A stretch of DNA of 64,000 bases from Acidobacteriota bacterium (GCA_040754075.1 JBFMDH010000006.1:102285-166284), one strand, 5' to 3'. Positions 5,683-61,725 are shown, counted from the first letter of the stretch. Program-made: numbers and translations. The notes: a model not told the origin generated them from the letters alone.

Positions 5683-5760
5683 CGGTAGTCGGAAGCCGGA
5701 AGCCGGTGGTCGGTAATTCATATCTAAAACCGGCTACCGATCACCGACTACTGACTACCG
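5683..5760. repeat. Tandem-heptamer hairpin with unit CGGTAGT
   Basis: Left arm (CGGTAGT)(CGGAAGC)(CGGAAGC)(CGGTGGT)(CGGTAAT). The reverse complement of the right arm is (CGGTAGT)(CAGTAGT)(CGGTGAT)(CGGTAGC). Confidence 0.8.
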
Positions 5761-5763
5761 AAA

Positions 5764-7149
5764 ATGCTCAACGAAGTCTTGAAAATCTGTGAAGCGATAC
5801 GCGACGCGGGCGGGCGAGCGATGCTGGTTGGCGGCATCGTGCGTGATCGTTTGTTTGGCTACGAATCGAAGGATTACGACCTCGAAGTTTATTATTTAGA
5901 ACCTGCGCTTCTGCGTTCCACCCTCGAATCCTTCGGACACGTCAACACCGTCGGCGAACATTTCGCAGTTTACAAATTAACCATTTATGTTCCATCTTCC
6001 GAAACCAATTCTAAAAATGTAAAAATTATCCCGAAATCCGCAATCCGCAATCCGCAATCCGCAATTGTAAAGAAACAGCGCGTCGAGATAGATGTTTCCA
6101 TTCCGCGTCGCGAATCGAAATCGGGACGCGGGCATCGCGGCTTTGTTATCACAGGCGACCCGCACATGACATTTGCCGAAGCTGCCAGACGTCGCGATTT
6201 CACCATCAATGCGATTATGCAAGACCCGCTCACCGATGAAATCGTTGACCCATACGGCGGCGTTGCCGATATTGAAAACCGCATCATTCGCGCAATCGCT
6301 GCCGATACTTTTATTGAAGACAGCCTGCGCGTGCTGCGCGCAATGCAAATAGCCGCGCGTTTTGAAATGACGATTGCGCCGGAAACCATCGCGCTTTGTC
6401 GCACCATTGATCTATCGGATTTGCCGCATGAGCGCATCTGGGGTGAATTTGAAAAATTGTTTTTGCGCGCTGCCAAACCTTCTATTGGACTGCACGTCGC
6501 ACTGGAACTCGGCGTACTGGAAAAACTTTTCCCTCCGCTTTACGCGCTAACAAAAAATCCCCGTGCAAATGAATTGACGGCATTTACAAAAACGCAAAAG
6601 CGATTAGACGCCGGGGCAAGTCAAGTTGGTGAGTTGGCAAAAGAGAAACACTTGACGCTCATGCTGGCGGCGCTTTGTCTTGATTTATCGGTTGAGCAAG
6701 CAATTGACGTTTTAGACACCCTCAGCATTTTTACAATAAACAATTACGATGTGCGAAAACAGGTGCTCGCGCTGGTGAGCGAACACCAAAAGCCGATTCA
6801 ATTTTTTGAATCGCGCGAACAAACCACCGATGGCGACTTTCGCAGACTTGCCGGGCGGGTTGAGATGAATTTGCTTTATCACACCGTGAAAGCCGATTTG
6901 ATTGCCGGCGGTGATAAAAAAGCTCCGGCAGCAAAATGGTTCATCGAAAAAGTGCGGCAGCTTGATTTGCAGCGCGGCGCGCCGGAACCGATTTTGATGG
7001 GGCGACATCTGCGGGAAATCGGCATTCAACCGGGACCGCAAATGGGGAAACTTCTGCATCAGGTTTACGAACTACAACTCGACGGCGTTGTGCAAACCTT
7101 AGAACAAGCCCTTGAAAAAGCCTGTTCCATCCTTGCCAATCAAAAGTGA
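5764..7149 (+). CDS. cca: CCA tRNA nucleotidyltransferase (class II polymerase-beta head plus HD domain)
   Basis: Conserved N-terminus GGxVRD, DYDLEV, RRDFTIN and ERI..E motifs. Confidence 0.8.
   Translation: MLNEVLKICEAIRDAGGRAMLVGGIVRDRLFGYESKDYDLEVYYLEPALLRSTLESFGHVNTVGEHFAVYKLTIYVPSSETNSKNVKIIPKSAIRNPQSAIVKKQRVEIDVSIPRRESKSGRGHRGFVITGDPHMTFAEAARRRDFTINAIMQDPLTDEIVDPYGGVADIENRIIRAIAADTFIEDSLRVLRAMQIAARFEMTIAPETIALCRTIDLSDLPHERIWGEFEKLFLRAAKPSIGLHVALELGVLEKLFPPLYALTKNPRANELTAFTKTQKRLDAGASQVGELAKEKHLTLMLAALCLDLSVEQAIDVLDTLSIFTINNYDVRKQVLALVSEHQKPIQFFESREQTTDGDFRRLAGRVEMNLLYHTVKADLIAGGDKKAPAAKWFIEKVRQLDLQRGAPEPILMGRHLREIGIQPGPQMGKLLHQVYELQLDGVVQTLEQALEKACSILANQK
6035..6062 (+). repeat. In-frame tandem heptamer (AATCCGC)x4 inside the cca coding sequence
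   Basis: Four exact copies plus a partial AAT, encoding ..SAIRNPQSAI.. inside an apparent roughly 30-aa insertion in the head domain. Confidence 0.85.
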
Positions 7150-7218
7150 TTCCACATTCAGAAATTTCCGGCTCGCAAAAATCTTCTACACACGCTGCGA
7201 CCGCTGCGGGTTGCGGCG

Positions 7219-7680
7219 GTGCTTGCAAACTCTATCGAAGATTTCCGCAACCACCTCGAAGTCCTCATCGCGCCCGCCGATGTCAATCGATTCATTGAAG
7301 TCATCAATCATTTCTATCCGCGTTTTCATGCGTGGTGGCAGGCAGGCGCTGAGGAGCAACTGCGGAAAAAAGCTGAAAGTTACCGGCAAACAGAAATCTG
7401 CTTTCTGTCAGTGATTTTCTTTTCCTGCCGAACCTTTGGGAATTTTGGTGCCCGATTCCGGCATTTTATTTATGTCAGCAGAATGAACCTGGATTCGACA
7501 GTTAAACAGGAGGAAGCTATGCTCAGTGAAATCGGTTCCGAAGAATTCGCAGTTTATGAAAAATTCGTCCAAAGCGCGCTCGAAGCCTTCACCCATCAAA
7601 TTGTCGATTGTGAAGATTTTTTAACCGGCGACGCTTTGTATCTGCGGTTAGGCATCCTGCCCAACCGATTGAGGAGGTAA
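7219..7680 (+). CDS. Hypothetical protein; the full 153-aa ORF has a GTG start and no ribosome-binding site, while an internal ATG at 7519 has a strong AGGAGG site and would give 53 aa
   Basis: Open reading frame only, no recognisable domain. Confidence 0.25.
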   Translation: MLANSIEDFRNHLEVLIAPADVNRFIEVINHFYPRFHAWWQAGAEEQLRKKAESYRQTEICFLSVIFFSCRTFGNFGARFRHFIYVSRMNLDSTVKQEEAMLSEIGSEEFAVYEKFVQSALEAFTHQIVDCEDFLTGDALYLRLGILPNRLRR

Positions 7681-7684
7681 TTTA

Positions 7685-8740: not shown

Positions 8741-8802
8741 GATGAATGCGGTTGCTTGGCGATGCTCACAACTATAGCCGTTTGCAAAACGATTTACTCA
8801 AG

Positions 8803-8862
8803 TTGAGGAAGCGGTCTTTGACCGGGTTTCCCGTCATACGCGATCAAAGACCGTTTCCTCAA
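8803..8862. repeat. REP-like element, inverted pair
   Basis: TTGAGGAAGCGGTCTTTGACCGG ... CGATCAAAGACCGTTTCCTCAA. Confidence 0.75.
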
Positions 8863-8894
8863 CAGCGGCTGAGTAAACTCAATCGCAAACCGCT

Positions 8895-9188
8895 CTAAGC
8901 GACTGCATATTCGGTGTAAGGTCTGAGGTCAGGGTGGCGAAAACCTAAAACAATTTGATTTTTGGGAATGCCTGCGGCTTCGAGGTCGGTGGCAATGCCT
9001 TCTTCGGTGTTGTTTTCCTGAATCCAGATTTTGCCGTTGACGATTTCCAGATGCGCGATTACTCCGTGTTCGTGCCGTTTATTGTCCCAGCCATAACAGA
9101 GCCATAAATACTGGTCTCGTTCGTGGTCAAAAACAACACGGTCTTCAAGTTCGCTATTTGAGTTAGGAATCTTGGCATAGTTCGTCAA
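8895..9188 (-). CDS. XisI-like protein, probably N-terminally truncated
   Basis: Resembles XisI as recalled (..ERD.Y.....GW...R.HG...HLEI..GKIWIQ.N.TE.GIA..L...GIPK..IVLGF). At 97 aa it is shorter than typical XisI proteins. Confidence 0.5.
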   Translation of the reverse strand: MTNYAKIPNSNSELEDRVVFDHERDQYLWLCYGWDNKRHEHGVIAHLEIVNGKIWIQENNTEEGIATDLEAAGIPKNQIVLGFRHPDLRPYTEYAVA

Positions 9189-9257
9189 TACCTTTTCAAT
9201 GATGTCGCGGTATTGGTTTAAGGTATCTATAGCAAAACCTCTTCGTTCTCAAAAGAG

Positions 9258-9476
9258 CTAGAGTTTTTCCCAGTCGTCCTTATCAATTCCGGCTTGTCGT
9301 AGTATGCGGCTCAACAGGTCTTTGCTGATGTCGCCTTGATGTGGATTCGGAATTCGTAGAGTGATTGCGCCTTTCACCATAAATTGATGTTTGCCGCCAG
9401 AGTAAGGACCTTCAAATCCCAGTTGCCGCAAATATTGAATCAAATCTTTTCTTTTAGTCGCGCCGAAACTTGGCAT
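9258..9476 (-). CDS. hicA: HicA-family toxin of a type II toxin-antitoxin pair (mRNA interferase)
   Basis: YcfA/HicA-like sequence. Its start overlaps the hicB stop as ATGA. Confidence 0.65.
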   Translation of the reverse strand: MPSFGATKRKDLIQYLRQLGFEGPYSGGKHQFMVKGAITLRIPNPHQGDISKDLLSRILRQAGIDKDDWEKL

Positions 9477-9718
9477 CAGGCAACTTCCTTGATGGTTAAT
9501 TCGATGCCGTCAGCCACTGGTACAGGCAAATTACGGGAGATGCGAAACAGCAGCCATTCTTCGAGAACTTCCGCCAATTCTTCGCGGCAATCTTCCAGCG
9601 TTGCGGCATTGGCATAAACGCCCTCAAAGCCAGGAATCTCTGCGTAGAAACTATGGTCATCGGGCAAGATTTCGTAGCGTGCCTGTCGCATTGCGGCTTT
9701 CAGATAATTTGTCAACAT
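9476..9718 (-). CDS. hicB: HicB-family antitoxin (UPF0150 fold)
   Basis: YEILPDD..FYAEIPGFEGVYANAATLEDCREELAEVLEEWL is typical of HicB. It is translationally coupled to hicA. Confidence 0.65.
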   Translation of the reverse strand: MLTNYLKAAMRQARYEILPDDHSFYAEIPGFEGVYANAATLEDCREELAEVLEEWLLFRISRNLPVPVADGIELTIKEVA

Positions 9719-10072
9719 AACCGTTCTTCTCCTTGTCGAAAGCTAGATTGCGCCATTTTGTTCCATCCATCCTAACGCCGCCGCTTCCGATTCTTCAATG
9801 GCTATCTCAACCCCGCGTTTGGCAATGTCGAGCAGGCGTTTTGATACTCGGTAATATCATTTGAAATTTAAGGTCAAGATATTTAGCCGAATGAGTGGCG
9901 ATGCGCAATGCCGAAATGCTGATTGATTTTTCGTCAAGCATCGTACCTGCAATAAGCGCACTGCAAGTGTCGGATGATCTTTGCGGTGCGCTTGCAGTTG
10001 ACTTTGTCGCCCGTCAATAAAAATCAATAAAATAGCAGCAGCGCCGCTGTGGCACAGGGTTCGCTCTAAGGG

Positions 10073-11032: not shown

Positions 11033-11252
11033 GAATAAAATACGCTTCTTAAAAGCGAAAGCTTTGTCCTCGGATTAAGCGGATTGAACCGATAAAGCGG
11101 ATTACATTTTTGCGATGAATCCGCCCAATTCGTTTCATTCGTTCAATCCGCGGATAACTTTTTACCTTCGGCTGATGAGCCAACCAACTTGCTAAGTTAT
11201 CCTGAATGAGCCTGCGGCTTCTCAAAGAATAAAAGCTGAAAAATTATAAGTG

Positions 11253-12745: not shown

Positions 12746-12863
12746 GCAGCAATCGGGGTCACGGGGGCGACGCAGATTGCTGCTAACTTAGGGAAGCGAC
12801 AGAAGCACTTTCAATGAGCCACAGCGGGTTAGGGTCACGGGGGCGACGCTGACCTACTGTGGC
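12746..12863 (+). other. Twin stem-loops (12746-12783 and 12818-12863) each carrying the identical 18-nt loop core GGGTCACGGGGGCGACGC; candidate cis-regulatory or small RNA element
   Basis: Stems GCAGCAATC/GATTGCTGC and GCCACAG/CTGTGGC. The shared core falls in different reading frames in the two copies, so it is unlikely to be coding. Confidence 0.4.
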
Positions 12864-13003
12864 TTACTTACATGCTCGACTCCCCCTGAGCAAAGCGCTT
12901 ATTCAAAATATTTTTATCTCCCTTTAACGCTGTCTTAACAACTCAGGAATATAATCAACCTTCTAAGAGATGTAATTCTTGAAAGGAGTATGGGGGATTG
13001 ATT

Positions 13004-13204
13004 ATGAACAATTCGATTTCCAATATACAAAAAAACATCGCGTCATTTGTGCCGGGCGAAAATGTTGAAACCAGTTTCGGACCCGGTGTGGTTTCAAGCG
13101 TCAATCTGATTGATTCGCTGATTTATGTGGCTTTGTCACGCAAGCCCAAAGCGCTCTACATTTTCAAACCTGAACAATTGAATGAAGCAACGGCTGGCGT
13201 ATAA
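13004..13204 (+). CDS. Unannotated small protein (66 aa) downstream of the PqqD-like gene
   Basis: ATG with GGAG/GGGGGA upstream and a 201-nt open frame. No homolog recalled. Confidence 0.3.
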   Translation: MNNSISNIQKNIASFVPGENVETSFGPGVVSSVNLIDSLIYVALSRKPKALYIFKPEQLNEATAGV

Positions 13205-13256
13205 CAGAGCCTCACACTGGCTTGCGAATCAACTATCGCAAGTTGTTCAGGAGGCA

Positions 13257-13391
13257 ATGATGGAATTTATGACCGTAACCGGAACGCAGGATGGTCGTCG
13301 CTATATCGCGATTTACCGAAAATGGTTTAACGAAAAATTGAGCGCCTGGGAACTCAATATGGTTCCGGGCACGTTGCGCTGGTTGAGCTGA
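13257..13391 (+). CDS. Unannotated small peptide (44 aa, MMEFMTVTGTQDGRRYIAIYRKWFNEKLSAWELNMVPGTLRWLS)
   Basis: ATGATG start with a CAGGAGG ribosome-binding site 4 nt upstream. Confidence 0.3.
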   Translation: MMEFMTVTGTQDGRRYIAIYRKWFNEKLSAWELNMVPGTLRWLS

Positions 13392-13708
13392 CGGCTTCCC
13401 GCAATTGATTTCAACCGCCATCAAGTAATCGAAATCAACCTCACCCACCCTTGAACGACGGCTCTTCGTCCTCTCTGAATTTGCTTATTTTCCCTTCAAA
13501 TAGCCGATTTTATCGCTGCCAGGCATCCGTCATCTTTATTAACAAAGCGTTTTCCTAAGCCACGATTGACAATGCTTTCAAGCGTGTGCTAAAAGCAATC
13601 CCGTCAAGTAAGCATATAGTTTTTTCCAGCAGCAATACTCAATAATCGAAAGTTTACGAGTAAGAATTTCTGCGCGTTGACGCTCTCTTAAAATGCGCAA
13701 GTGCGGGG

Positions 13709-14665: not shown

Positions 14666-14730
14666 AGTTTGTAGCCCATAGTCCGTAGTTCAGATTTCTG
14701 CTACGGGCTACGGGCTACAAACTGCGGACT
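14666..14730. repeat. Tandem-heptamer hairpin with unit AGCCCGT/AGTCCGT
   Basis: Left arm (AGTTTGT)(AGCCCAT)(AGTCCGT)(AGTTCAG). The reverse complement of the right arm is (AGTCCGC)(AGTTTGT)(AGCCCGT)(AGCCCGT). Confidence 0.75.
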
Positions 14731-15871: not shown

Positions 15872-15874
15872 TTT

Positions 15875-15928
15875 CAGTAATGAGTGATGAGTTATCGCTC
15901 GTCATTCTTTACTCATCACTGATCACTG
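15875..15928. repeat. Tandem-heptamer hairpin with unit AGTAATG/AGTGATG
   Basis: CAGTAATGAGTGATGAGTTATCG ... reverse complement of CTTTACTCATCACTGATCACTGAA. Confidence 0.7.
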
Positions 15929-15935
15929 AAGAACT

Positions 15936-17410: not shown

Positions 17411-17956
17411 ATGACAGTCACATCAGTGCCGGGAAGAAGGCGAACTTTTACGAATGCCATCAAACGGCTGCTTTTGATTGATTTATTCAAAGGTCTGGCA
17501 GTGACCTTTAAATATAATCTTCGCGCCTTGTATGAAAAACGCGAAGGCGGCAATCCCAATCAGGCGATTTACACCGAGCAGTATCCGCTCGAACCGGCTC
17601 GCGTATCCGAGCGGTTTCGCGGCGCGCCGCGTCTCAACCTCGACCCGGAAACCGGCGGCACATTGTGTATTGCCTGCGACCTGTGCGCGCTGGCGTGCCC
17701 GGTTGATTGCATCACCGTCAACTCGACCCGTCGCGAAGTGCGTGACGGCGAAAAGGTGAACAAGAAAAAAGTGCTCACCACCTTTTTCTTCGACACCTCG
17801 CGTTGTATGTTTTGCAATCTCTGTTCGGAAGCCTGCCCGACCGATTGTCTGGAACTGACGCAAAGCTTCGAGCTTGCGGTTTATCACCGTTCAGGTTTCC
17901 GCTGGGATAGAGAAATGCTCGAAAAGGGCGTGAAGTATGTGAAATATAATAAGTAG
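17411..17956 (+). CDS. nuoI: NADH-quinone oxidoreductase subunit I (two 4Fe-4S ferredoxin motifs)
   Basis: CIACDLCALACP and CMFCNLCSEACP motifs. Confidence 0.9.
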   Translation: MTVTSVPGRRRTFTNAIKRLLLIDLFKGLAVTFKYNLRALYEKREGGNPNQAIYTEQYPLEPARVSERFRGAPRLNLDPETGGTLCIACDLCALACPVDCITVNSTRREVRDGEKVNKKKVLTTFFFDTSRCMFCNLCSEACPTDCLELTQSFELAVYHRSGFRWDREMLEKGVKYVKYNK

Positions 17957-18117
17957 TCCAGAGTCTGGAGTCTGGAGTCTGGAGTCAAAATAAAGAAAAG
18001 TGAAGTATGAATGATGAGGTATGAACAATTAAATTATTCTTTCAGTTCATCGTTCCGACTTTATCGTTTTCCTAAATTCTGACTCCCGACGCCAGACGCC
18101 AGACTCCAGACTCCCGG
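17954..18117. repeat. Tandem-heptamer hairpin with unit CTGGAGT; the longest one, with about 34-nt arms and a 93-nt interior carrying a secondary palindrome
   Basis: Left arm (CCAGAGT)(CTGGAGT)x3. The reverse complement of the right arm is (GGGAGT)(CTGGAGT)(CTGGCGT)(CTGGCGT)(CGGGAGT). Confidence 0.8.
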
Positions 18118-18721: not shown

Positions 18722-18795
18722 TTCGCAATTTTCCTTCGCCGCATTAATTGATTCGATTTTCATTCGCTCATTTTTGATTCATTGAGGAGAACGCT

Positions 18796-19227: not shown

Positions 19228-19233
19228 CTAGCA

Positions 19234-19311
19234 AGTAATGAGTAATGAGTGATGAGTGATGAGTGGATAGCCCACAACTTACTCATTACTCATTACTCAT
19301 TACTCATCACT
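19234..19311. repeat. Tandem-heptamer hairpin with unit AGTAATG
   Basis: Left arm (AGTAATG)x2(AGTGATG)x2. The reverse complement of the right arm is (AGTGATG)(AGTAATG)x3. The loop is GATAGCCCACAA. Confidence 0.85.
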
Positions 19312-19318
19312 TGGAAAT

Positions 19319-21469
19319 ATGTTAAAACTCGTTTGGCTTATACCCGTCTTACCCCTCATCGGCTTTTTAATCAATTTCATTCTCGGCAAAAAGCTTGCCC
19401 TCAGCGAAAAGGCTGTCTCTGTAATTGCCTGCGGCGTCATTCTGTTGTCGCTGTTGCTGACCATTGGGGCGTTTTTTGACTACAAGTACAACTTCAATCC
19501 GCAGAATGAAACCAAGCCTTATGTGACGAGTCGCGAAGGCGGCTTTGGCTTCACCTGGATGCCCGGCGGTCGCGCCCATCAAACGCAAGGTGAAGAAGCG
19601 GGAAAGCTTGCGAATTTCAACATCGAGTGGAGCTATCAAATTGACCAACTGTCGCTGGTGATGATGTTCGTCGTCACCTTTGTTGGTTTTTTGATTCACG
19701 TCTTTGCCACCGGGTATATGCACGGCGACACCGGATTTTATCGCTTTTTCGCTTACCTCAATCTGTTTATGTTCATGATGCTTCTGCTGGTGATGGGGTC
19801 GAACTTCATGATTATGTTCATCGGCTGGGAAGGCGTAGGGCTTTGTTCGTATCTGCTCATCGGTTACTACATCAATAAACAGGAAGCGGGCGACGCTGCA
19901 AAGAAGGCTTTCGTCGTCAACCGCATCGGCGATTTCGGTTTTGCGCTGGCAATTATGGGGGCGTTTGCCACTTTCGGCACTTTGCAATTCGATGAGATGG
20001 CGCGCGTGGCAAGCGCCTATCATGTGGAAGCGTTTGGCGCATTTGGACTGATGAGTTGGCTGGCGCTTGGACTGTTTATCGGCGCGACCGGTAAGAGCGC
20101 GCAGATTCCGCTCTATATCTGGTTGCCGGATGCAATGGCAGGTCCCACGCCCGTATCGGCGCTGATTCATGCGGCAACGATGGTGACGGCAGGCGTGTTT
20201 ATGGTGACGCGCACCAATTTTATTTTTCAACGCTCCGGGACAATGATGGCGGTCGTTGCCATCGTCGGCTGCGCGACGGCACTGGTTGCGGCAACCATCG
20301 GCATCACGCAAACCGACATTAAAAAAGTGCTGGCTTATTCGACGGTCTCGCAACTCGGCTATATGTTCTTAGGCGCAGGCGTCGGCGCATTCATTGCGGC
20401 AATTTTCCACGTCTTCACACACGCCTTTTTCAAAGCCCTGCTTTTCCTCGGCTCCGGTTCAGTGATTCACGGCATGCATCATGAACAGGAGATGCCGAAA
20501 ATGGGCGGTTTGAAAAAATATATGCCCACGACCTACAAAACCATGCTGATGGGATGGTTGGCGATTTGCGGCATTCCGATTTGGGCAGGCTTCTTCTCGA
20601 AAGACGAAATTCTCTGGAGCACCTTCAATTCGCACATCTTCGGCGGCGCAAAAGTTTTATGGATTATCGGCTTGATTACTGCTGGCATCACTGCCTTCTA
20701 TATGACGCGGTTGATGACGCTGACCTTTGAAGGCGAAGAGCGATTTAGAAAAAACCCTGATGCGCATTCAGCGCACGGACATGATGGGCATGGTCATCAC
20801 GGCACATTTGAACCGCACGAATCGCCGCAGAGCATGACTGTGCCGCTCATTGTGCTGGCGTTCTTTTCGACTTTCGTCGGACTTCTGGGCATTCCGCACT
20901 ACAGCGCCTTCGAGCATTGGCTTGAACCGGTGATGGATAAACCGCACGGAGCGGAAGCTGCGCATGGCAGTTTCGGGCTTGAGGTGGGGCTGATGATTGT
21001 ATCGGTTGCCGTAGCCGTTATTGGCATCTATCTGGCGCGACAATTTTATTTGAACAGACCGCAACTTGCCGAAGAGTGGACGAAGCGTTTACAACCGCTC
21101 TACAAACTCAGTTTCAATAAGTGGTATTGGGACTGGCTGCTGGATGTAAAAGGCGTCGAAGCAGGCAAGTCCGTAAACAACGCGCTCTGGAAAGTTGATG
21201 CGGCAGTCGTTGACGGTGGTGTCAACGGCGCGGGGGCGCTGACGCGCATCTGGGCGCGCATCAGCAACCTCTGGGACAAGTATGTGGTTGATTTATTAGT
21301 GAACGCCACCGGCTGGACATCGAAAGCCGGTTCGATTGTTCTGAGAACCGTGCAGACCGGATTCTGGCAAAATTACGCGCTGGTGTTCGCGCTTGGCGTT
21401 TTGATTATTCTGGGATTTTATGTTTTCCCGGCAATATCAACGACCTTTAGAGCTTTATTTGGGAAGTAA
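19319..21469 (+). CDS. nuoL: NADH-quinone oxidoreductase subunit L
   Basis: 716 aa with the conserved antiporter-like core and a long C-terminal horizontal helix region. Confidence 0.9.
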   Translation: MLKLVWLIPVLPLIGFLINFILGKKLALSEKAVSVIACGVILLSLLLTIGAFFDYKYNFNPQNETKPYVTSREGGFGFTWMPGGRAHQTQGEEAGKLANFNIEWSYQIDQLSLVMMFVVTFVGFLIHVFATGYMHGDTGFYRFFAYLNLFMFMMLLLVMGSNFMIMFIGWEGVGLCSYLLIGYYINKQEAGDAAKKAFVVNRIGDFGFALAIMGAFATFGTLQFDEMARVASAYHVEAFGAFGLMSWLALGLFIGATGKSAQIPLYIWLPDAMAGPTPVSALIHAATMVTAGVFMVTRTNFIFQRSGTMMAVVAIVGCATALVAATIGITQTDIKKVLAYSTVSQLGYMFLGAGVGAFIAAIFHVFTHAFFKALLFLGSGSVIHGMHHEQEMPKMGGLKKYMPTTYKTMLMGWLAICGIPIWAGFFSKDEILWSTFNSHIFGGAKVLWIIGLITAGITAFYMTRLMTLTFEGEERFRKNPDAHSAHGHDGHGHHGTFEPHESPQSMTVPLIVLAFFSTFVGLLGIPHYSAFEHWLEPVMDKPHGAEAAHGSFGLEVGLMIVSVAVAVIGIYLARQFYLNRPQLAEEWTKRLQPLYKLSFNKWYWDWLLDVKGVEAGKSVNNALWKVDAAVVDGGVNGAGALTRIWARISNLWDKYVVDLLVNATGWTSKAGSIVLRTVQTGFWQNYALVFALGVLIILGFYVFPAISTTFRALFGK

Positions 21470-21478
21470 AAGTTTTTA

Positions 21479-21545
21479 CCACAGAGACACCGAGGCACAG
21501 AGATAAAAATATAATTTCTTCTCTGTGTCTCGGTGCCTCTGTGGT
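21479..21545. repeat. Hairpin with 8-nt tandem units CACAGAGA/CACCGAGG; 25-bp arms with one mismatch
   Basis: ACCACAGAGACACCGAGGCACAGAG ... CTCTGTGTCTCGGTGCCTCTGTGGT. Confidence 0.85.
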
Positions 21546-26040: not shown

Positions 26041-26100
26041 CTGAGGAAGCGGTCTTTGACCGCGTTATCCTGTAAATCGCGGTCAAAGACCGCTTCCTCA
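26041..26100. repeat. REP-like element, near-perfect inverted pair
   Basis: CTGAGGAAGCGGTCTTTGACCGCG ... CGCGGTCAAAGACCGCTTCCTCA. Confidence 0.85.
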
Positions 26101-29333: not shown

Positions 29334-29338
29334 AAGAA

Positions 29339-29470
29339 TTTAGGATACAGGCAGAAGAAACGATGAAGGCGGAATGTTAAACGATGAACAAGGTGAAATT
29401 CTTTTTGTTCATCGTTCATCGTTCCTACTTCATACTTTCCTTTCCCTGAATCCTGAATCCTGTATCCTGA
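29339..29470. repeat. Compound hairpin: outer arms TTAGGATACAGG and (CAGGATT)x2-type tandem units, inner arms AACGATGAAC tandem units
   Basis: The reverse complement of the right arm is (TCAGGATA)(CAGGATT)(CAGGATT). The interior carries GAACGATGAACGATGAAC inverted against AACGATGAAG...AACGATGAAC. Confidence 0.65.
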
Positions 29471-29623: not shown

Positions 29624-31444
29624 ATGAAAAAATCGCTCTATACAATTCTCATCGCTCTACTGATATTTGCTGCATCTTGTGCGTCCTGTAGTCCAAAACC
29701 ACCTAAAAGCACGAACGCGCCCAATCCTCCCTTCGAGGGTGAAACGCCGCAAGAAGCTTATCAATTTCCAGGCGAAACGGGCACCTACGGCGGACAACTG
29801 GTGATGGCTTCGCCCGATGATATGCAAAAATTCAACATCGTCACCGCCGATGATGTGCCTTCGACTTTCGTGCTCTGGTATCACGTCTTTCGCTGTCTGG
29901 TCGATTATCGCAATGGCGCGAATCCGCCGGATTATGACCCGGGCGTCTGCACAAAATACGAAGCCTCGCCCGATGCCAAAGAGTGGACATTCTATATCAG
30001 AAAAGGGGTGCGCTGGTCTGACGGTCAACCGTTTACCGCCGATGATGTTTTATTCACCTATGAGGTGATTAAAGATGAGCGCGTGCAAACCCCGATTCGC
30101 GATATTTTCACCGAAGGCAAAGACGCCAGCGGCAAAGCGACCTATCCCGAATTGCAGAAGATTGATGACCACACGGTGCGTTTTAAACTCACGAAATCCA
30201 ACGGCGCATTTCTCGATTCGATTTTCAACCTCTGGTTAATTCCCAAACACAAATGGGAGCAAGCCTGGCGCGAAGGCAAATTCAATGACGCCATGAAAAT
30301 CAGCGATGACCCGAAAGATGTCGTCGGTCTTGGACCTTTCCGCATTAAAGAATATACCTCCGGTCAACGTGTCGTCCTCGAACGCAACCCTTATTTCTGG
30401 AAAGTCGATAAACAGGGACAGCGCCTTCCATATCTTGACCGCATCATTTTCGTGATTGCCAAAGATTTCAATGCCCTCACCGCGAAATTCCAAGCCGGTG
30501 AAATCGATGTCATGGATAGAGTGCGCGCCGCGGAATTCACTCTGGTTCAAAAGATGGAAAGCCCCGAAGTCAAAGTCGAAGACATCGGCATTTCGCTCAA
30601 TCCCAACTGGATTACCTTGAATCAAAACACCGGCACTAATCCGAAAACCGGCAAACCTTATGTTGAAGCCTGGAAACTCAAACTCTATCGCAATCAAAAA
30701 TTCCGTCAGGCGCTCTCCTTTGCGATTGACCGCGAGGGTTTAGCCAATACGGTGTTTGCCGGTCGCGCGGTGCCGATTTATTCCATCATCACGCCCGGCG
30801 ATAAAACCTGGTATTCCGACGACATCATGAAATACCCGTATAACAAAGACCTCGCCAAACAGCTGCTTGCGGAACTCGGACTCAAAGACACCAATGGCGA
30901 TGGCTTTCTGGAAGACGGCGAAGGGCACACAGTTGGAATCAATATCACCACCAATGCCAGCAATTCACAGCGTGTCAGCACCGCGGCATTCATCGTGAAA
31001 AATTTTCAGGATGTCGGCATCAAAGCCATTTCCAATCCATCGGATATGAAAGTGATTCGCGAAGCCCTCAGTTCAACCTTCATGTTCGATGCGATTGTTC
31101 TCGGTTGGAGTACGGGCGTGCCGCCGGGTCCGCCAAATGTCAAAAATACGCTTTTATCATCGGCGCAAAATCACTCGTTTTTCCCTTTGCAGAAATCGCC
31201 ATCAACCGAATGGGAAGCGCGTATTGATGAGTTGATAGAAAAGATTGACGAAACCGCCGACCAGACTGAACGCAAACGACTGTTTGCCGAAGCCCAGCGC
31301 ATCTGGTCAGAACAGATGGCGGAAATCAACACGGTTGCCGAAAAAGTCGGCATCGCTTATAAAAACAAATTCGGCAATGTGCTACCGAGTCCTTTAGACC
31401 CGAAATTCTCCTGGAACAGCGAAGAGCTTTACATCAAGAAGTAG
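29624..31444 (+). CDS. ABC transporter substrate-binding lipoprotein, family 5 (oligopeptide/dipeptide/nickel type)
   Basis: ATG at 29624 with a GGAGGGAG site and lipobox AASCASC. The ORF track's start at 29558 was rejected. SBP_bac_5-like sequence throughout. Confidence 0.85.
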   Translation: MKKSLYTILIALLIFAASCASCSPKPPKSTNAPNPPFEGETPQEAYQFPGETGTYGGQLVMASPDDMQKFNIVTADDVPSTFVLWYHVFRCLVDYRNGANPPDYDPGVCTKYEASPDAKEWTFYIRKGVRWSDGQPFTADDVLFTYEVIKDERVQTPIRDIFTEGKDASGKATYPELQKIDDHTVRFKLTKSNGAFLDSIFNLWLIPKHKWEQAWREGKFNDAMKISDDPKDVVGLGPFRIKEYTSGQRVVLERNPYFWKVDKQGQRLPYLDRIIFVIAKDFNALTAKFQAGEIDVMDRVRAAEFTLVQKMESPEVKVEDIGISLNPNWITLNQNTGTNPKTGKPYVEAWKLKLYRNQKFRQALSFAIDREGLANTVFAGRAVPIYSIITPGDKTWYSDDIMKYPYNKDLAKQLLAELGLKDTNGDGFLEDGEGHTVGINITTNASNSQRVSTAAFIVKNFQDVGIKAISNPSDMKVIREALSSTFMFDAIVLGWSTGVPPGPPNVKNTLLSSAQNHSFFPLQKSPSTEWEARIDELIEKIDETADQTERKRLFAEAQRIWSEQMAEINTVAEKVGIAYKNKFGNVLPSPLDPKFSWNSEELYIKK

Positions 31445-31586
31445 TCGGCGGTCAGTAGTCGGTAGCCGGTGTTTGATTTGAAAAGTAATCATTGAATGAT
31501 TCACTGTAATATTCATGTTTTAAATTCCGGCTACTGACCACCGGCTACCGACTACTGACCACCGACTACCGGCTACCGACTATTGG
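31441..31586. repeat. Tandem-heptamer hairpin with unit CGGTAGT; asymmetric (about 4 units on the left, 8 on the right) with an inner AATCATTGAATGATT palindrome
   Basis: The reverse complement of the right arm is (CGGTAGC)(CGGTAGT)(CGGTGGT)(CAGTAGT)(CGGTAGC)(CGGTGGT)(CAGTAGC). It lies exactly between the binding-protein stop and the permease start. Confidence 0.8.
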
Positions 31587-32599: not shown

Positions 32600-32625
32600 T
32601 TGAAGGAGCGGTCTCTGACCGCGAC
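32600..32625. repeat. REP-like element, single copy
   Basis: GTTGAAGGAGCGGTCTCTGACCGCGA. Confidence 0.65.
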
Positions 32626-33824: not shown

Positions 33825-33959
33825 CAGACAGTAGGCAGAAAGCAGTAGGCAGTCTTTTCGTTTAAGGTTTATACTCTCTTTGGCGAGGAAATTGGAAAAG
33901 TAATTCAAGGAAGAAATTTTATAACTGCCTGCTGCCTGCTGCTTTCTGCCTACTGATGC
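33824..33959. repeat. Tandem-heptamer hairpin with unit CAGTAGG/CAGAAAG
   Basis: Left arm CAGACAGTAGG CAGAAAG CAGTAGG CAGTC. The reverse complement of the right arm is (CAGTAGG)(CAGAAAG)(CAGCAGG)(CAGCAGG). The right arm abuts or overlaps the ptsH start codon. Confidence 0.8.
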
Positions 33960-36074: not shown

Positions 36075-36140
36075 TGTTGAGACAGCAATCTTTGACCGCG
36101 TCGTTGGGAAATCGCGGTCAGAGACCGCTCTCTCAACAAC
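36075..36140. repeat. REP-like element, inverted pair
   Basis: TTGTTGAGACAGCAATCTTTGACCGCG ... CGCGGTCAGAGACCGCTCTCTCAACAA. Confidence 0.75.
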
Positions 36141-36250: not shown

Positions 36251-36280
36251 GCAATCGTGGTCAAAGACCGTTTGCTCAAC
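36251..36280. repeat. REP-like element, single copy in reverse orientation
   Basis: TGGTCAAAGACCGTTTGCTCAAC. Confidence 0.6.
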
Positions 36281-40039: not shown

Positions 40040-40235
40040 GGTTTCAATCAATCGGCTCAGACCGACCGTCTAAAGACCACCAAACCGTTTGAAACGGAGC
40101 GGTTGCTGTGCAACCTGATTCAGCATCATTAACTAATCCAAGTTGCCAGTTGCTCACAAAACGACATTGCTCCAAAGGGGCAAAGGAAATTAACCTGTGG
40201 TGCAGCCACAGGTCAATGAGCCAGTTAAAGCTCGC

Positions 40236-40346
40236 GCGCCCTGAAGGGCAATGCCATTAAGTTAAGACTGGGAGCGCGGACGTGGACGTCCGCGCTCCCG
40301 GTAAGTAATTCTCCTTAACTTAATGGCATTGGCACTGAAGGGGCGC
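40236..40346. repeat. Nested palindrome between two convergent genes: 18-bp outer inverted repeats CAATGCCATTAAGTTAAG flanking a perfect 13-bp inner stem GGGAGCGCGGACG with a TGGA loop
   Basis: Read directly from the sequence. CTGAAGGG direct repeats sit at both outer ends. Confidence 0.75.
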
Positions 40347-40429
40347 AAAAATCTCAGGCTTCACATTCCGGCAGTTGCACCGCTGGCTAATCTCCGCTAG
40401 TTCAACGAACCCGCAACCTGGATTAACTA

Positions 40430-41550: not shown

Positions 41551-41576
41551 TGTTGAGGAAGCGGTCTCTGACCGCA
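41551..41576. repeat. REP-like element, single copy
   Basis: TGTTGAGGAAGCGGTCTCTGACCGCA. Confidence 0.65.
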
Positions 41577-47291: not shown

Positions 47292-47366
47292 GTTTCTGGT
47301 TTTCTAGTTTGTGTTTCCATCACTCTTGCATTATCAGGATTAAACTAGAAACCAGAAACCAGAAAC
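47292..47366. repeat. Tandem-heptamer hairpin with unit GTTTCTG
   Basis: Left arm GTTTCTG GTTTTCTA GTTT. The reverse complement of the right arm is (GTTTCTG)(GTTTCTG)(GTTTCTA). Confidence 0.75.
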
Positions 47367-54887: not shown

Positions 54888-54914
54888 GGTTTAGCAAGCG
54901 GTCTTTGACCGCGA
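54888..54914. repeat. REP-like element, single copy
   Basis: GGTTTAGCAAGCGGTCTTTGACCGCGA. Confidence 0.65.
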
Positions 54915-56886: not shown

Positions 56887-57561
56887 TCATTCGAGCGCGC
56901 AATCAAACACCACATCGGTTCCCAGTTGCGCGATTTTTACTGACTGAAAAGTAATGGCATCGCGCAATCTGGTGATACTCAAATCGCCGATGGCTTCGAT
57001 GCCGCGCCCGATGATTTTCGGAGCAATCACCACAATCAATCGGTTGACCAATTGTTCACGAAGTAGAGCCGTAATGATTCCGGCTCCGCCTTCAACTAAA
57101 ACCGACTGGATTTGGCGTCTGCGGAGTTCTGCCAGTAACTGTTTAAGATTTACGCGGGAAGAGATGACATCCGGAATTTCGCCACCAATGGTCAGGACTT
57201 CCGCGCCAAGTTCTTTTATGGCTGCTTTGCGGGTTTCATCGGCACCAGGACTGGTGGCGATGAGTGTGCCTGGTGCTGCATCTTCACTTAATATATTTGC
57301 CTCAAGTGGAATTTTTAAATCGCCATCAACAATCACTCGCAAAGGGTCACGGCCTTTAACCAAACGGACATTCAAACGCGGATTGTCGGCGAGAACCGTG
57401 CCAACGCCAACCATAATCGCATCATGTTCTGCGCGCAGTTGATGCGCGAGGGTGAGCGTTTCCTGACAACTAATCCATTGCGAATCGCCTGTGCGGGTGG
57501 CGATGCGACCATCAAGCGTCGATGCATATTTCACCGTAACAAAAGGCTGAGAATGTTTCAC
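56887..57561 (-). CDS. RibD C-terminal domain reductase (5-amino-6-(5-phosphoribosylamino)uracil reductase / DHFR-like family)
   Basis: FVTVKYASTLDGRIA..GDSQWIS motif. Reductase domain only, with no deaminase domain. Confidence 0.7.
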   Translation of the reverse strand: MKHSQPFVTVKYASTLDGRIATRTGDSQWISCQETLTLAHQLRAEHDAIMVGVGTVLADNPRLNVRLVKGRDPLRVIVDGDLKIPLEANILSEDAAPGTLIATSPGADETRKAAIKELGAEVLTIGGEIPDVISSRVNLKQLLAELRRRQIQSVLVEGGAGIITALLREQLVNRLIVVIAPKIIGRGIEAIGDLSITRLRDAITFQSVKIAQLGTDVVFDCALE

Positions 57562-57665
57562 ACCTACGATTACCTTTCAAAGTTTTTATTGACAGGCAGT
57601 TTAACCGAATCGCTGATGGTTGGTCATTTACAGGAAGGAAATTTTTAATGACAGGTTGATAAACT

Positions 57666-60122
57666 TTACATCACGCGAAATGAAGTCAAATCAACTTCAG
57701 CAGGGTTATCAGGAGTTGAATCTGCCGGTTGTCCGGCATTTTTGCGTTTGAATTTATTGCTATACATTCCTCTATCGGCGGAAAGCAGTAATTCATCGAG
57801 CGTATAGCCATCCAAACCATAGCAAGCATACCCAATGCTTATGCCAATGTGTTTGCCGGCTTGATGACAACTGAAAACGTGTGCATCAATGGTGTGTTGA
57901 ATACGCCCGACCACCATCGGGGCTTCTTCGGATGTTGCCTGAACGATAGCCACAAACTCATCGCCGGCATATCTGCACAAAAAGTCAAATGAGCGAATCT
58001 GTTTTGAAAGCGTGGTGGCAATCTCTTTCAACACCGTATCACCTGCCTGATGCCCCAAGCTATCGTTGACCGTTTTGAAGCCATCCAAATCCATCATCAA
58101 CACGGCAAATTTATTACCGTAACGTTGGGAACGCGAAACCTCTTCTTCAAACCGTTGTCTGAGGGCGCGGGCATTCGGCAGCCCCGTCAGCGGATCGGAC
58201 AATGCACTGGCTTCGGTTTGTTTATGATGTAAAACATTGGCAATCGCATCCGATGCCAGTTTGGCAACGGCTTCGACCAATCGCAAGTGGTCGGCTTCGT
58301 AGGCGGCTTTATCCTGCGAATACAAAGTCAATGCGCCAAATATCTCCTTCCCTTTAATCAAGGGCACCGCCATCACGGTTTGATAATTATCGAGTTTATC
58401 TAATTTCAAGGCATTGAAATCCAATCGTGGGTCAGCGTTATACATCGGTTTGGCGTTGTCGACCACCCACCCGGAAATGCCTACCCCCAGCCCCATTTTC
58501 GCGCCTCTTAAATATTCCGAATTGCGCCCGATGACGTGTGCGACTTCGAGCATCCCCGCGTCTGCCGAGCGCAGGTAGAGGACACAGGTCGTATAACTGA
58601 CAATATCCTGTAAACGCGAAGAGAAGACCGTAAAGGTATCGCGCAAATCGAGACTCGTGCCGATGGTTTGCGCGATGTTGTAGAGGGTGATGACTTCACG
58701 ATGCGCATTGCGTATGGTTTCAAACGGCGCGTATTTCACCGGCATTGCGTCCGCTGAATCCACCGATGAACGCATCTCCGTTTGTCTATCTTTGCGTTCG
58801 ACATTCTGATATTTTACTTCCGCTTCAAATCTCGACAGGTTGTCCACAAACGCTTTAACGACTTTCGGATCGTACATTCGCCCGGTATTGTCTTCTAAAA
58901 GTTTGACGGCTTCGGCGGGTGTCATGGCTTTGCGATATTGCCGCTCTTCGAGAGCCGAATCATAACAATCAACCACTGAGAGAATGCGTGCCGTAATGGG
59001 AATTTGTTCGCCGCGCAAGCCGTCAGGGTATCCTTGACCATCCCAACGTTCGTGATGATGGCGGACAATCGGCACCACCGGGTAAGGAAAGCTGACACGC
59101 TCTAAAATTTCCGCGCCGACAATCGTATGGACTTTCATCTTGTCATATTCGGCGGGCGTCAATTTGCCAGGCTTATTGAGAATGTAATCGGGAACCGCCA
59201 GTTTGCCGATGTCGTGCAGGAGTGCGCCGGCTTTTAAGGATTCGGTTTCGCTTTCCGAAAGTCCAAAAATTTTTGCCAGACCCGTCGCATAAATCTGTAC
59301 TCGACGCACATGGTCGTGAGTGACTTCATCTTTGGCATCGATGGCAATCGCCAACGCTTCAATGGTTCTGAGATGCAAATCCGCCATCTCTTCCGAATGG
59401 CTAATCGAAGCCCGGACTTTGTCGAGATAGTTTTTATAAGTCAAATAGGTGATTGCCAGAATCGGCACCGCGATGATGAAGGCAAAAAACGAAACCCAGG
59501 AAATTAATTCCACCACCAGGCAGGCGGCGATGGCTCCGGCAAAATAGGAAACCGAAGTCCAGAGGAAAGATTCGCGCCAGAATTTGATGACATCGCGCCC
59601 GCGCCTCAACGCTTGAACAATGTTTACCAGTCCGGCATTGATCAGGTAATGAACCAATGCCAGCGTCTGCGCTGCTAAAATCAATTGACTGAAATTTCCC
59701 GGCAAACCTTTCAGGTCGTCGAAAAGATACCTGACAAATGAACTCGATAAAAATACAGACAAACTCATGACCGCCGTATTAAAGCGCATGACTTTGAGCC
59801 GGTTCGGATAATTCAATGAACAGACCGCCGCATTCAATCCGGCAAGGACTACCGCAGGCGCTACACCGTACAGCAATGCCGCAACATAAATAAAAGTATC
59901 ATCGAGTGTAACGGTGTTTGATAATTTCGGAATGTGTATATCGGTGCGGGAAACCACCACAACCGTCACCAAACTGAGCAGCACCCATTCAATGGTGAAT
60001 TCCTGTGTGGCAACTTTGAATGCGGAATAGGCAAAAATGACAAGCCCGAATAACGAAACCACGTTGATGAAGAACATGGAAGAGGCGTTTTCATTTTTTC
60101 TGGAGCTAGCTTGCATTTTCAC
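57666..60122 (-). CDS. Multidomain c-di-GMP signalling protein: N-terminal polytopic membrane sensor, HD-GYP phosphodiesterase, GAF domain, and a GGDEF domain with an AGDEF variant motif
   Basis: HDIGKL...HHERWDGQGYP (HD-GYP), a GAF-like middle region, and RYAGDEF in the GGDEF domain. Confidence 0.8.
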   Translation of the reverse strand: MKMQASSRKNENASSMFFINVVSLFGLVIFAYSAFKVATQEFTIEWVLLSLVTVVVVSRTDIHIPKLSNTVTLDDTFIYVAALLYGVAPAVVLAGLNAAVCSLNYPNRLKVMRFNTAVMSLSVFLSSSFVRYLFDDLKGLPGNFSQLILAAQTLALVHYLINAGLVNIVQALRRGRDVIKFWRESFLWTSVSYFAGAIAACLVVELISWVSFFAFIIAVPILAITYLTYKNYLDKVRASISHSEEMADLHLRTIEALAIAIDAKDEVTHDHVRRVQIYATGLAKIFGLSESETESLKAGALLHDIGKLAVPDYILNKPGKLTPAEYDKMKVHTIVGAEILERVSFPYPVVPIVRHHHERWDGQGYPDGLRGEQIPITARILSVVDCYDSALEERQYRKAMTPAEAVKLLEDNTGRMYDPKVVKAFVDNLSRFEAEVKYQNVERKDRQTEMRSSVDSADAMPVKYAPFETIRNAHREVITLYNIAQTIGTSLDLRDTFTVFSSRLQDIVSYTTCVLYLRSADAGMLEVAHVIGRNSEYLRGAKMGLGVGISGWVVDNAKPMYNADPRLDFNALKLDKLDNYQTVMAVPLIKGKEIFGALTLYSQDKAAYEADHLRLVEAVAKLASDAIANVLHHKQTEASALSDPLTGLPNARALRQRFEEEVSRSQRYGNKFAVLMMDLDGFKTVNDSLGHQAGDTVLKEIATTLSKQIRSFDFLCRYAGDEFVAIVQATSEEAPMVVGRIQHTIDAHVFSCHQAGKHIGISIGYACYGLDGYTLDELLLSADRGMYSNKFKRKNAGQPADSTPDNPAEVDLTSFRVM

Positions 60123-60780
60123 CGCTACGAACTTATTTGACCTAAGCTATGTTTGCTGCGTTTTGTGAGCAGGGGCTTGAGCCATCAATTGCTTAAATTT
60201 CTCATTCGCATTACCAAAAAGGGGGAGCATTTTTTGTAGGTATCAACAGGCACGCATCTCCACCTGCTGTTAAATAGCTTTTGCGATATTTGCGACTCCT
60301 TTTTCGCTACAAGAAGATGGCAAAAATCTCAATCAATAATCGTGCCACAAACACAACTTCCCCTTACTATCATCAAGATTTTTCCTGTCGCATTTGCGGG
60401 TTCGCCTGAAGCGCTGAATGAATACGGAAATTATTGAATTAAATCACTTTTGAGGGCATTTTCTGCGCTGAATAATTCTATTAAGAAAATTTCTGCTTAT
60501 CCCGTCTATAAAAATTATCATTGTAAATATCAGTCATCTTGATTGAATCGCATCTCCTCAATCAGTCAAAATGCCTGAACAGGTTTATTTTTTATAACCG
60601 TACCGATTACAAGATAAATAACCAGCACCAATCTCAATCGTTGGTCAATTTTCTAATAGGGTGTTTATAAATTTTAAACTCTTGGCTACGGTTGTATTCA
60701 AGCAGGTTGAAATTGGTTCAATCTGAACTTTTGGAAAAACCTGTCATCACCAATACAATTTGTTATCTTGCGAAACCATT

Positions 60781-61554
60781 TTATGGCACATTCATTCCCA
60801 TAACGTGATATCCGCTATCAACATGTAGCAATTCGCCAGTTACGCCGCGTGATAAATCCGAGAGTAAAAATAACCCGGCATCGGCAACCTCTTCCTGTGT
60901 AACATTGCGCCGCAACGGCGCATTATTTCGCATATGTTCAAGAATTTTTGAAAAGCCGGTAATCCCTGCTGCCGCGAGTGTCTTAATCGGGCCAGCCGAA
61001 AGCGCATTGACGCGAATCCCTTTTGGTCCCAAATCGGCTGCCAGATAACGCACACTCATATCGAGCGCCGCTTTTGCGACCCCCATCACATTGTAATGCG
61101 GGATGACTCGTTCGCCACCAAGATAGGTGAGCGTCAAAATGCTGCCGCCGTTTTCCATCAACGGCGTCGCATGTTTGGCAATCGCCGTGAGCGAATAAAC
61201 ACTGATGTCCTGAGCGATGCGAAACCCTTCACGTGAAGTTTCAACATATTCGCCTTCGAGTTCTTCTTTTAGCGCAAAAGCAACGCCGTGTACCACAAAA
61301 TCCAGGGTGCCAAATTCTTCTTTCACTTTACTGAAAACACCTGCGACATCTTCGTCTTTGGTCACATCGCATTCAAACAACGAGGGGTTATCTATGGTTG
61401 CCGCCAATTCTTCGGCATTCTCTTTTAACCGTTCACCCTGGTAGGTTAAAGCGATTCTCGCGCCGTGCTCTGCGGCTTTCTTGGCAATCGCCCAGGCAAT
61501 GCTGCGTTTATTAGCAACACCAAAAATGATTCCCTTCTTTCCATTCAAAAGCAT
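60781..61554 (-). CDS. fabI: Enoyl-[acyl-carrier-protein] reductase (NADH) FabI
   Basis: SDR fold with the FabI Tyr-x6-Lys region, 257 aa. Confidence 0.9.
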   Translation of the reverse strand: MLLNGKKGIIFGVANKRSIAWAIAKKAAEHGARIALTYQGERLKENAEELAATIDNPSLFECDVTKDEDVAGVFSKVKEEFGTLDFVVHGVAFALKEELEGEYVETSREGFRIAQDISVYSLTAIAKHATPLMENGGSILTLTYLGGERVIPHYNVMGVAKAALDMSVRYLAADLGPKGIRVNALSAGPIKTLAAAGITGFSKILEHMRNNAPLRRNVTQEEVADAGLFLLSDLSRGVTGELLHVDSGYHVMGMNVP

Positions 61555-61561
61555 AGTCTCT

Positions 61562-61725
61562 CCGTTTTTAGTTTCTAGTTTATGGTTTTTAGTTTCTGGT
61601 TGCTAATCTCTGCCGGGTAGTCCTTCAACTTGTTGCGAAAAAATTTCGGCTAAATCTGATACCCGCAACTTGCCGGGCAGCAATTCATTTTCTGAACCAG
61701 AAATCAAAAACCAGAAACGAAAAGG
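61562..61725. repeat. Tandem-heptamer hairpin with unit GTTTCTG/GTTTTTA and a structured interior
   Basis: Left arm (GTTTTTA)(GTTTCTA)(GTTTATG)(GTTTTTA)(GTTTCTG). The reverse complement of the right arm is CGTTTCTG GTTTTTGA TTTCTG GTTCAGA. Confidence 0.7.

Follow-up and report, generated by a model that had tools for sequence, protein, structure and literature searches.

Heptanucleotide repeats are over-represented in many bacteria, an excess explained by slippage according to Mrazek 2007 as cited in PMC4692102 and PMC4679880. The closest described counterparts of the elements reported here are the STRR repeats of filamentous cyanobacteria, which usually have 7-bp units and form hairpins between cistrons such as hupS and hupL (PMC2670836). 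The function of STRR hairpins is unsolved, with transcript stability or translational coupling proposed (PMC2670836), and Anabaena nif transcripts are stabilised by stem-loops at processing sites (PMC4284476). Here we analyse a 64,000-nucleotide (nt) stretch of DNA from a soil bacterium of the Acidobacteriota (GCA_040754075.1, JBFMDH010000006.1:102285-166284; hereafter the window) and describe a set of long hairpins whose arms are tandem arrays of a unit that is nearly always seven nucleotides long. Hairpins occupy the nuoC/D, D/H, I/J, K/L and L/M junctions of the nuo operon (genes assigned with Pfam), and we class the set, as the best fit, with the cyanobacterial STRR heptamer-repeat hairpins, of which it would be the acidobacterial equivalent. 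The window contains 12 loci in 64 kb, all intergenic, listed here with z scores for folding stability against shuffled sequence:

1-23, + strand: cut-off 3′ arm of A+C-rich, GACTCCA-type units, with reverse-complement consensus GAGTCTG as at 17961; the 5′ arm precedes the window start.
5683-5760, + strand: GGTAGTC / GGAAGCC heptamer hairpin (arms 5683-5714 and 5729-5760; -39.7 kcal/mol, z -7.0), lying according to Pfam between the stop codon of a cytochrome c gene at 5676 and the start, at 5764, of a gene of the CCA-adding/poly(A) polymerase family.
14666-14723, + strand: GTAGCCC / ATAGTCC heptamer hairpin in the nuoC/nuoD spacer (arms 14666-14688 and 14701-14723, 91% complementary; z -7.7).
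15873-15930, + strand: AGTRATG heptamer hairpin in the nuoD/nuoH spacer (lag-7 autocorrelation 0.77/0.85; z -4.7).
17955-18112, + strand: composite hairpin in the nuoI/nuoJ spacer, with outer arms (GAGTCTG)n / (CAGACKC)n (-68.5 kcal/mol, z -8.8) and, nested in its loop, a second heptamer hairpin, GAAGTAT/GAATGAT...GTTCATC.
19232-19313, + strand: (AGTAATG)2(AGTGATG)2 / (CATTACT)3(CATCACT) hairpin in the nuoK/nuoL spacer (z -11.4), the best-conserved example.
21478-21545, + strand: octamer-unit hairpin, CACAGAGA / CACCGAGG, in the nuoL/nuoM spacer (Tandem Repeats Finder period 8; z -11.6).
29335-29470, + strand: composite hairpin in the spacer that separates oppA from a Na/Ca-exchanger gene, with outer CCTGAAT and inner GTTCATC units (z -8.7) and a degenerate 5′ arm.
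31441-31586, + strand: GGTAGTC-family heptamer hairpin in the oppA/oppB spacer (3′ array of 8 units; 97% complementary; z -9.1); the oppA stop codon, TAG, falls within its first unit.
33829-33955, + strand: CAGTAGG / CAGAAAG heptamer hairpin directly 3′ of the oppC stop codon (96% complementary; z -7.3).
47292-47366, + strand: GTTTCTG / CCAGAAA heptamer hairpin directly 3′ of the cinA stop codon, the next gene being unknown (z -5.4).
61562-61725, - strand: GTTTCTG-family heptamer hairpin whose loop is long and structured; it separates an M28 peptidase gene from fabI and has the weakest z of all the loci (-2.8).

A first-pass annotation of this sequence had described at least 11 inverted repeats with tandem-array arms, and Tandem Repeats Finder together with an inverted-repeat search of the window bears this out at all 11 loci. 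Each of the 11, and with them the truncated arm at 1-23, proves to be tandem arrays in an inverted pair; ten loci use heptamers and one uses octamers. The Tandem Repeats Finder output has arrays of period 7 at 5690, 14700, 15911, 17961/18081, 19234/19279, 29407/29445, 31527, 33829/33925, 47342 and 61564/61695, and a single period-8 array at 21520. The inverted arms measure 23-57 nt and are 72-97% complementary. A simple array detector scores 8 arrays of period 7 in the window versus 0.0 in shuffles, and none with periods of 8-12; under looser settings, 12 window arrays out of 13 with a period of 5-11 repeat every 7 nt. Autocorrelation along the arms of long hairpins in the window and related Blastocatellia loci gives the same period: lag 7 is best in 23 hairpins and any other lag in at most 3, and shuffles yield none.

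RNA folding, proposed as a check in the first-pass annotation, likewise singles out every locus. All 11 are more stable than 200 dinucleotide-preserving shuffles each, with z between -4.7 and -11.6 except at 61562-61725, where it is -2.8. Predicted stems span 20-57 bp and are balanced in G+C. Secondary palindromes, also noticed in the first pass, form inner nested hairpins at five loci (17954, 29335, 31441, 33824 and 61562), and direct reading of the sequence finds no T-run 3′ of the hairpin at any locus. The arms also mirror each other in the order of their variant units. Permuting the units of one arm lowers the number of arm matches from 2026 to 1897 +/- 14 (z 9.4), and the real order beats the permuted order in 78 of 95 hairpins, a set that had been ascertained through arm similarity; variants in one arm are thus compensated in the other, as had been suggested. 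A lone array also occurs in the window: (CCGCAAT)x5 at 6031-6065 is partnerless and lies within the CCA-adding/poly(A) polymerase-family reading frame (5764-7149), in which it codes for a portion of an apparent insertion, PKSAIRNPQSAIV. Arrays of heptamers can therefore invade coding sequence too.

The architecture is constant enough for the hairpins to form one family with heptamer-repeat arms, as first proposed; the accompanying idea that each locus has a unit of its own does not hold, since several loci share a unit and the units have a common core. GAGTCTG recurs at 1-23 and 17961, GGTAGTC at 5683, 14666 and 31441, AGTAATG at 15873 and 19232, and GTTTCTG at 47292 and 61562. Over all collected loci, 20% of hairpin pairs within a genome have the same unit (at most one mismatch) versus 4% of pairs between genomes. 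Rotational alignment of 131 units places adjacent A and G in 99 and 108 of them, respectively, usually with a pyrimidine next, which defines an AG(Y) core; the aligned units hold 3.98 bits of information, compared with 2.90 +/- 0.06 when units are shuffled. AGT is present in most Blastocatellia units and AGC(T) in most of those from Terriglobia. The core is not a product of stop codons, which occur in 59 of the 131 5′-arm units and in 61 of the 131 3′-arm units.

The two arms differ in a fixed direction. The 5′ arm is the G+T-rich one in 92 cases versus 32, the dinucleotide GT is present in 74 of 131 5′-arm units versus 12 of 131 3′-arm units, and the polarity is identical when read from either DNA strand. 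With the G+T-rich arm first and the C-rich arm second, the one strand attractive to Rho (C-rich and G-poor) might be concealed the moment it is made, and the same polarity might put a start-codon-free, G-poor sequence beside the real start. Stop codons, being equally common in both arms, do not account for the polarity. We also considered whether a longer 3′ array serves as an unstructured leader and dropped the idea: the difference in array length is marginal (p 0.056), and overhangs past the stem base are equal.

Placement of the hairpins follows gene orientation. Of the 30 co-directional spacers in the window, 12 hold a hairpin, compared with 0 of the 14 convergent or divergent ones (Fisher p 0.008). 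Across all loci, the 93 co-directional hairpins lie a median of 6 nt downstream of a stop codon, and a median of 12 nt separates the stem from the following start codon. Even loosely defined, a Shine-Dalgarno-like motif accompanies only 24 of these 93. The nuoJ/nuoK spacer is hairpin-free in the window (18722-18795) and in four relatives (L161, 966-1062; L162, 560-654; L166, 6729-6801; L167, 9407-9475); this junction is also the one where the Shine-Dalgarno sequence, GGAG, is strong and conserved and the start codon is GTG, whereas the hairpin junctions are mostly without a Shine-Dalgarno. An inverse relation between hairpin and Shine-Dalgarno is possible.

Comparison with relatives shows that position and foldability are retained while the sequence turns over. 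In L161 and L162, whose NuoL proteins are 91% and 86% identical to that of the window, the nuoK/nuoL hairpin is kept with the same AGTRATG unit, equal length and a recognisably homologous loop. Among these three sequences the nuoK/nuoL spacer (19228-19318) is 82-85% identical, compared with 51-60% at fourfold-degenerate sites of nuoJ, nuoK and nuoL and 39-54% in neighbouring spacers (binomial p 2e-7). Conservation so far above both yardsticks shows that this hairpin is under constraint. Elsewhere the unit has been replaced: the nuoI/nuoJ hairpin is (GAGTCTG)n in the window and (GGTCAGG/GGTCGGN)n in L161, and L166 and L167 (80% NuoL identity) have period-7 hairpins at nuoI/nuoJ and nuoK/nuoL with yet other units. 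The presence/absence comparison suggested at the outset thus finds hairpin position kept at nuoI/nuoJ and nuoK/nuoL, and the nuoL/nuoM octamer hairpin absent in all four close relatives. A relative without a hairpin has a replaced spacer rather than a cleanly empty one. On a shorter timescale, seven near-identical contigs, which differ by 0.1-0.6% and come from strains of a different Blastocatellia species, have the same unit numbers and hairpin lengths at three junctions; the hairpins are therefore not hypermutable contingency loci, and we rejected phase variation on this ground.

We next consider distribution, using the same detector on 80 nuoL-centred loci with one genome per species. The density of period-7 hairpins per 100 kb is 10.9 in the window; Blastocatellia have 8.6, the remaining Acidobacteriota (Terriglobia, Acidobacteriaceae and others) have 5.1, and non-Acidobacteria have 0.6. 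The nuoK/nuoL spacer is 63-111 nt long in every Blastocatellia locus and has a median of 25 nt outside the phylum, and it carries a hairpin in 13 of 13 Blastocatellia, with a best lag of 7 in 11 and at least five different units. These densities and the recurrent nuoK/nuoL hairpins indicate a trait of the phylum, not peculiar to one genome. A clear period-7 hairpin with GGGTCAN units also adjoins nuoL in a metagenome-assembled genome labelled Syntrophobacterales (L037, 1668-1827), which represents either sporadic occurrence beyond Acidobacteriota or a mis-binned contig. The window NuoL (19319-21469) is 100% identical to a protein of an NCBI metagenome-assembled genome labelled Acidobacteriota, and its nearest named relatives are Blastocatellia. 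Because the closest public NuoL relatives are only 86-91% identical, the source lineage appears poorly sampled; genome and metagenome scans gave no relative above 80% identity among the matches listed, and the closer ones came from a protein-index search. The G+C content is about 49% in the window and 55-60% in related Blastocatellia loci.

On balance, we think it somewhat probable that the arrays grew in place from AG(Y) heptamers, that their arms were kept complementary, and that they have been preserved between cistrons as mRNA stem-loops that affect transcript processing and stability as well as translational coupling. Under this reading, a 7-nt unit, usually AG plus a pyrimidine, would multiply in situ through replication slippage, and complementarity of the arms, including the order of variant units, would be maintained either by selection for pairing or by use of one arm as the template for the other (intrastrand template switching). 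In the long term one unit would supplant another while the hairpin persists at its gene junction. Each hairpin nearly fills the stop-to-start spacer of same-strand genes and would be transcribed in a polycistronic mRNA, where stems of 20-60 bp would stop 3′ exonucleases and would also offer the kind of duplex cut by RNase III, so that the operon transcript could be cut or protected at gene boundaries. The predicted 20-57 bp stems have the form of an RNase III substrate, a nearly perfect RNA duplex of about 20 bp or more, with transcription assumed from the intra-operon position. Because folding would bring the stop codon and the next start within about 18 nt, the downstream gene, mostly poor in Shine-Dalgarno sequence, could stay translationally coupled. 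Co-directional-only placement, the stop-stem-start geometry and the nuoK/nuoL constraint all point, indirectly, to such a role in RNA.

Several results weigh against this reading. Stem mismatches on the sense strand comprise 96 G.U versus 81 A.C (p 0.29; 43 versus 37 in a smaller set, not significant), and stability does not differ between the sense and the antisense fold (p 0.27); there is therefore no signature of RNA-specific selection. Slippage is assumed from the tandem structure, and the strain comparison showed zero length polymorphism. Sequence is conserved at just one of three comparable junction hairpins in the closest relatives, the rest being replaced or absent. Finally, 98 of 607 co-directional junctions on the nuo-operon strand ('++') carry a hairpin compared with 3 of 149 on the other ('--'), and since the loci were sampled around nuoL, what is said of operons in general depends chiefly on the window.

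The main rival holds that the hairpins are palindromic microsatellites at the DNA level, a neutral or selfish by-product of a replication and repair machinery that, in this lineage, is prone to 7-nt slippage and to hairpin-templated copying; they would arise and last in any spacer that tolerates them and would have no role in RNA. We regard this as possible though rather unlikely. It accounts readily for the even balance of G.U and A.C mismatches and the like folding of sense and antisense strands, for the G+T-rich 5′ arm appearing with the same polarity on both DNA strands, for the rapid turnover of units and lengths between relatives with gain and loss of hairpins, and for the unpartnered coding array at 6031-6065; polymerase slippage has moreover been put forward for heptamers in the work of Mrazek as cited in PMC4692102 and PMC4679880. 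A mere by-product should not, however, be conserved far above fourfold-degenerate sites and neighbouring spacers, as the nuoK/nuoL hairpin is, nor occur at that junction in 13 of 13 Blastocatellia despite differing units. The empty convergent and divergent spacers of the window, the tight fit from stop to stem and from stem to start, and invariant length over the seven near-identical strains argue in the same direction.

A more ambitious proposal, which we consider doubtful, extends the intercistronic stem-loop reading to a selected 'operon punctuation' common to Acidobacteriota and cyanobacteria. A reader of single strands in 7-nt steps, either an OB-fold or cold-shock-type protein or a nuclease, would act on the G+T-rich 5′ arm, a dedicated mechanism of arm-to-arm copying would keep the stems perfect, and the outcome would be segmental mRNA stability and coupling where Shine-Dalgarno sequences are little used.

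Unconventional terminators or attenuators, lacking a U-tract and ending or pausing transcription between genes, are a quite unlikely explanation. Very stable stems do stand directly 3′ of stop codons, and several separate functionally unrelated genes (cytochrome c from the CCA-adding enzyme gene, cinA from an unknown gene, the peptidase gene from fabI). But read-through is needed in the nuo operon, which contains five or six of them, and in the opp cluster, which contains two; none is followed by a T-run, and convergent gene ends have no heptamer hairpins, with a REP-like family or other hairpins there instead. Intrinsic terminators in the usual sense were rejected on the same features: stems of 20-57 bp with balanced G+C, no T-run and none at convergent gene ends.

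Least plausible are two further readings, each very unlikely. Were the hairpins non-autonomous mobile elements of MITE or REP/REPIN type with a transposase encoded elsewhere, one would understand why units recur in 20% of within-genome pairs versus 4% between genomes, why hairpins nest in the loops of others, and why GTAG, the tag of many REPs (PMC3733652), appears in some units; yet the consensus never exceeds 7 nt, loops and flanks are unrelated between loci, target-site duplications are lacking, orthologous hairpins are vertically inherited with conserved loops and flanks, Pfam finds no transposase or RAYT among the 52 open reading frames (ORFs) of the window, and a genuine consensus-type repeat in the same window looks quite different. 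In the second, each array would be a string of binding sites for a protein, such as a cold-shock OB-fold protein, whose every monomer takes up about 7 nt of single strand and which would open or close the hairpin to regulate the downstream gene. This would fit the strict period, the AG(Y) core conserved on the G+T-rich arm and the report that CspB binds heptamer repeats with one protein per heptamer and a preference for T-rich strands (PMC4679880), but the four other unit positions are free and units vary between loci and genomes.

The first-pass annotation had set the hairpins apart from the REP, BIME and MITE classes, and this stands: they have no long consensus and no target-site duplications. 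Its suggestion of an undescribed class does not, since STRR heptamer hairpins are known. REP/BIME was rejected as an assignment because the 7-nt unit is common to only 20% of within-genome pairs and loops and flanks are unrelated, and MITE because the stem bases have no target-site duplications and there is no conserved core.

The window also contains repeats of other kinds. A REP-like family with the palindrome GCGGTC-TTT-GACCGC is present in 9 copies at up to 3 mismatches (0 expected); some copies form inverted pairs, degenerate core copies occur in the nuoH/nuoI spacer, and the spacers concerned are without heptamer hairpins. Its positions, and those of two unrelated structures and two gaps, are as follows:

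8805-8860, 26043-26099, 32602-32623, 36113-36134, 36256-36277, 41555-41576 and 54892-54913: REP-like family, consensus GAGGAAGCGGTCTTTGACCGCG.
40234-40346: inverted repeat with 33 nt arms (GCGCGCCCTGAAGGGCAATGCCATTAAGTTAAG) and a G+C-rich inner palindrome, not heptamer-periodic and with no Rfam match; the convergent spacer 40040-40429 (390 nt) is strongly structured, at -159 kcal/mol.
11071-11151: period-9 array, CGGATTAAG-like, of 3.8 copies with a 25-nt inverted partner, in a 348-nt spacer upstream of a LuxR/GerE-type regulator gene.
8741-10072 (1.3 kb) and 12763-13708 (0.95 kb): no ORF of at least 100 amino acids; the second precedes nuoC, at the expected site of nuoA and nuoB, and the nuoC ORF has a 160-amino-acid N-terminal extension with no Pfam match.

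Heptamer-repeat hairpins are now seen in a second, unrelated phylum, in a more regular form in which nearly all arrays are inverted pairs of fixed polarity, and they hold the same junctions of the universal nuo operon across a whole class, with one example clearly constrained. The nuoK/nuoL hairpin as a target, the AG(Y) core and the stop-stem-start geometry offer handles for experiment and for comparative genomics. In annotation, such hairpins could pass for terminators. Rfam gives no match at gathering thresholds and only sub-threshold matches to generic microRNA-precursor models. The hairpins may also cause trouble in acidobacterial genome assembly or PCR.

Set against known elements, the hairpins share individual features with several systems. 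RNase III processing hairpins stand between cistrons in the phage T7 early region and in bacterial rRNA and mRNA operons. The acidobacterial hairpins resemble them as a functional analogy, being long, nearly perfect duplexes between cistrons of one predicted transcript, and differ in that known RNase III sites are not built from tandem repeats. REPs act as barriers to 3′ exonucleases and so stabilise upstream mRNA segments. Like the REP and BIME elements of enterobacteria and pseudomonads, whose roles are summarised in PMC3733652 and PMC3479197, the acidobacterial hairpins are extragenic palindromes inside operons; unlike them, they have just a 2-3 nt core and the period in common and are 2-5 times the length of a REP, whereas REPs have a common consensus of 20-40 nt, tagged GTAG or CGTC, and are linked to RAYT transposases. 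The TAACTGA repeats of marine Beggiatoaceae, some cyanobacteria and Bacteroidetes also have period 7, are intergenic and lie near start codons, and their reverse complement, TCAGTTA, includes AGT; they consist, however, of one unit used genome-wide as direct repeats (169 direct sets versus one inverted repeat; PMC4679880), in contrast to the many inverted units found here. The GGGAATC / GGGGAYT repeats of Xanthomonas and Nostoc, which vary in length and sequence at the same junctions in close relatives (PMC4692102), are likewise over-represented intergenic heptamers with some inverted pairs, but theirs are G-tract units for which a G-quadruplex has been proposed, whereas acidobacterial units have no G-tracts and pair as duplex stems.

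The likeness to STRR extends to the 7-bp unit, the presence of several unit families per genome, an intergenic location that includes spacers within operons, and inverted arrays that form hairpins. Downstream of hupS in Nostoc PCC 7120 (PMC2408588, Table 3), ttgtcagttgtcag and ttgttagttgttag are followed by ccactgactactgac, which on our reading have an AGT core and the same polarity. In the 150-kb plasmid alpha of Nostoc PCC 7120, period 7 is the sole long period (6-11), the only other array having period 5. Nearly every window array has an inverted partner, compared with one of six plasmid arrays, where the polarity is opposite; with six arrays and one inverted pair, the plasmid is a poor sample of chromosomal STRR hairpins. 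The STRR1-3 units, reportedly given by Mazel in 1990, are said to be CCCCAGT, TTGGTCA and CAACAGT. No tandem copies of these canonical units, or of TAACTGA or GGGAATC, occur in the window. The literature searched, whose incomplete coverage makes it weak evidence of absence, holds no prior description of heptamer hairpins in Acidobacteria or Blastocatellia, and what seems new is the Acidobacteriota lineage, the near-obligatory inverted pairing and the fixed polarity. Relative to STRR, then, the host phylum is Acidobacteriota rather than a filamentous or heterocystous cyanobacterium, and the acidobacterial hairpins, unlike STRR, fit tightly between stop and start codons.

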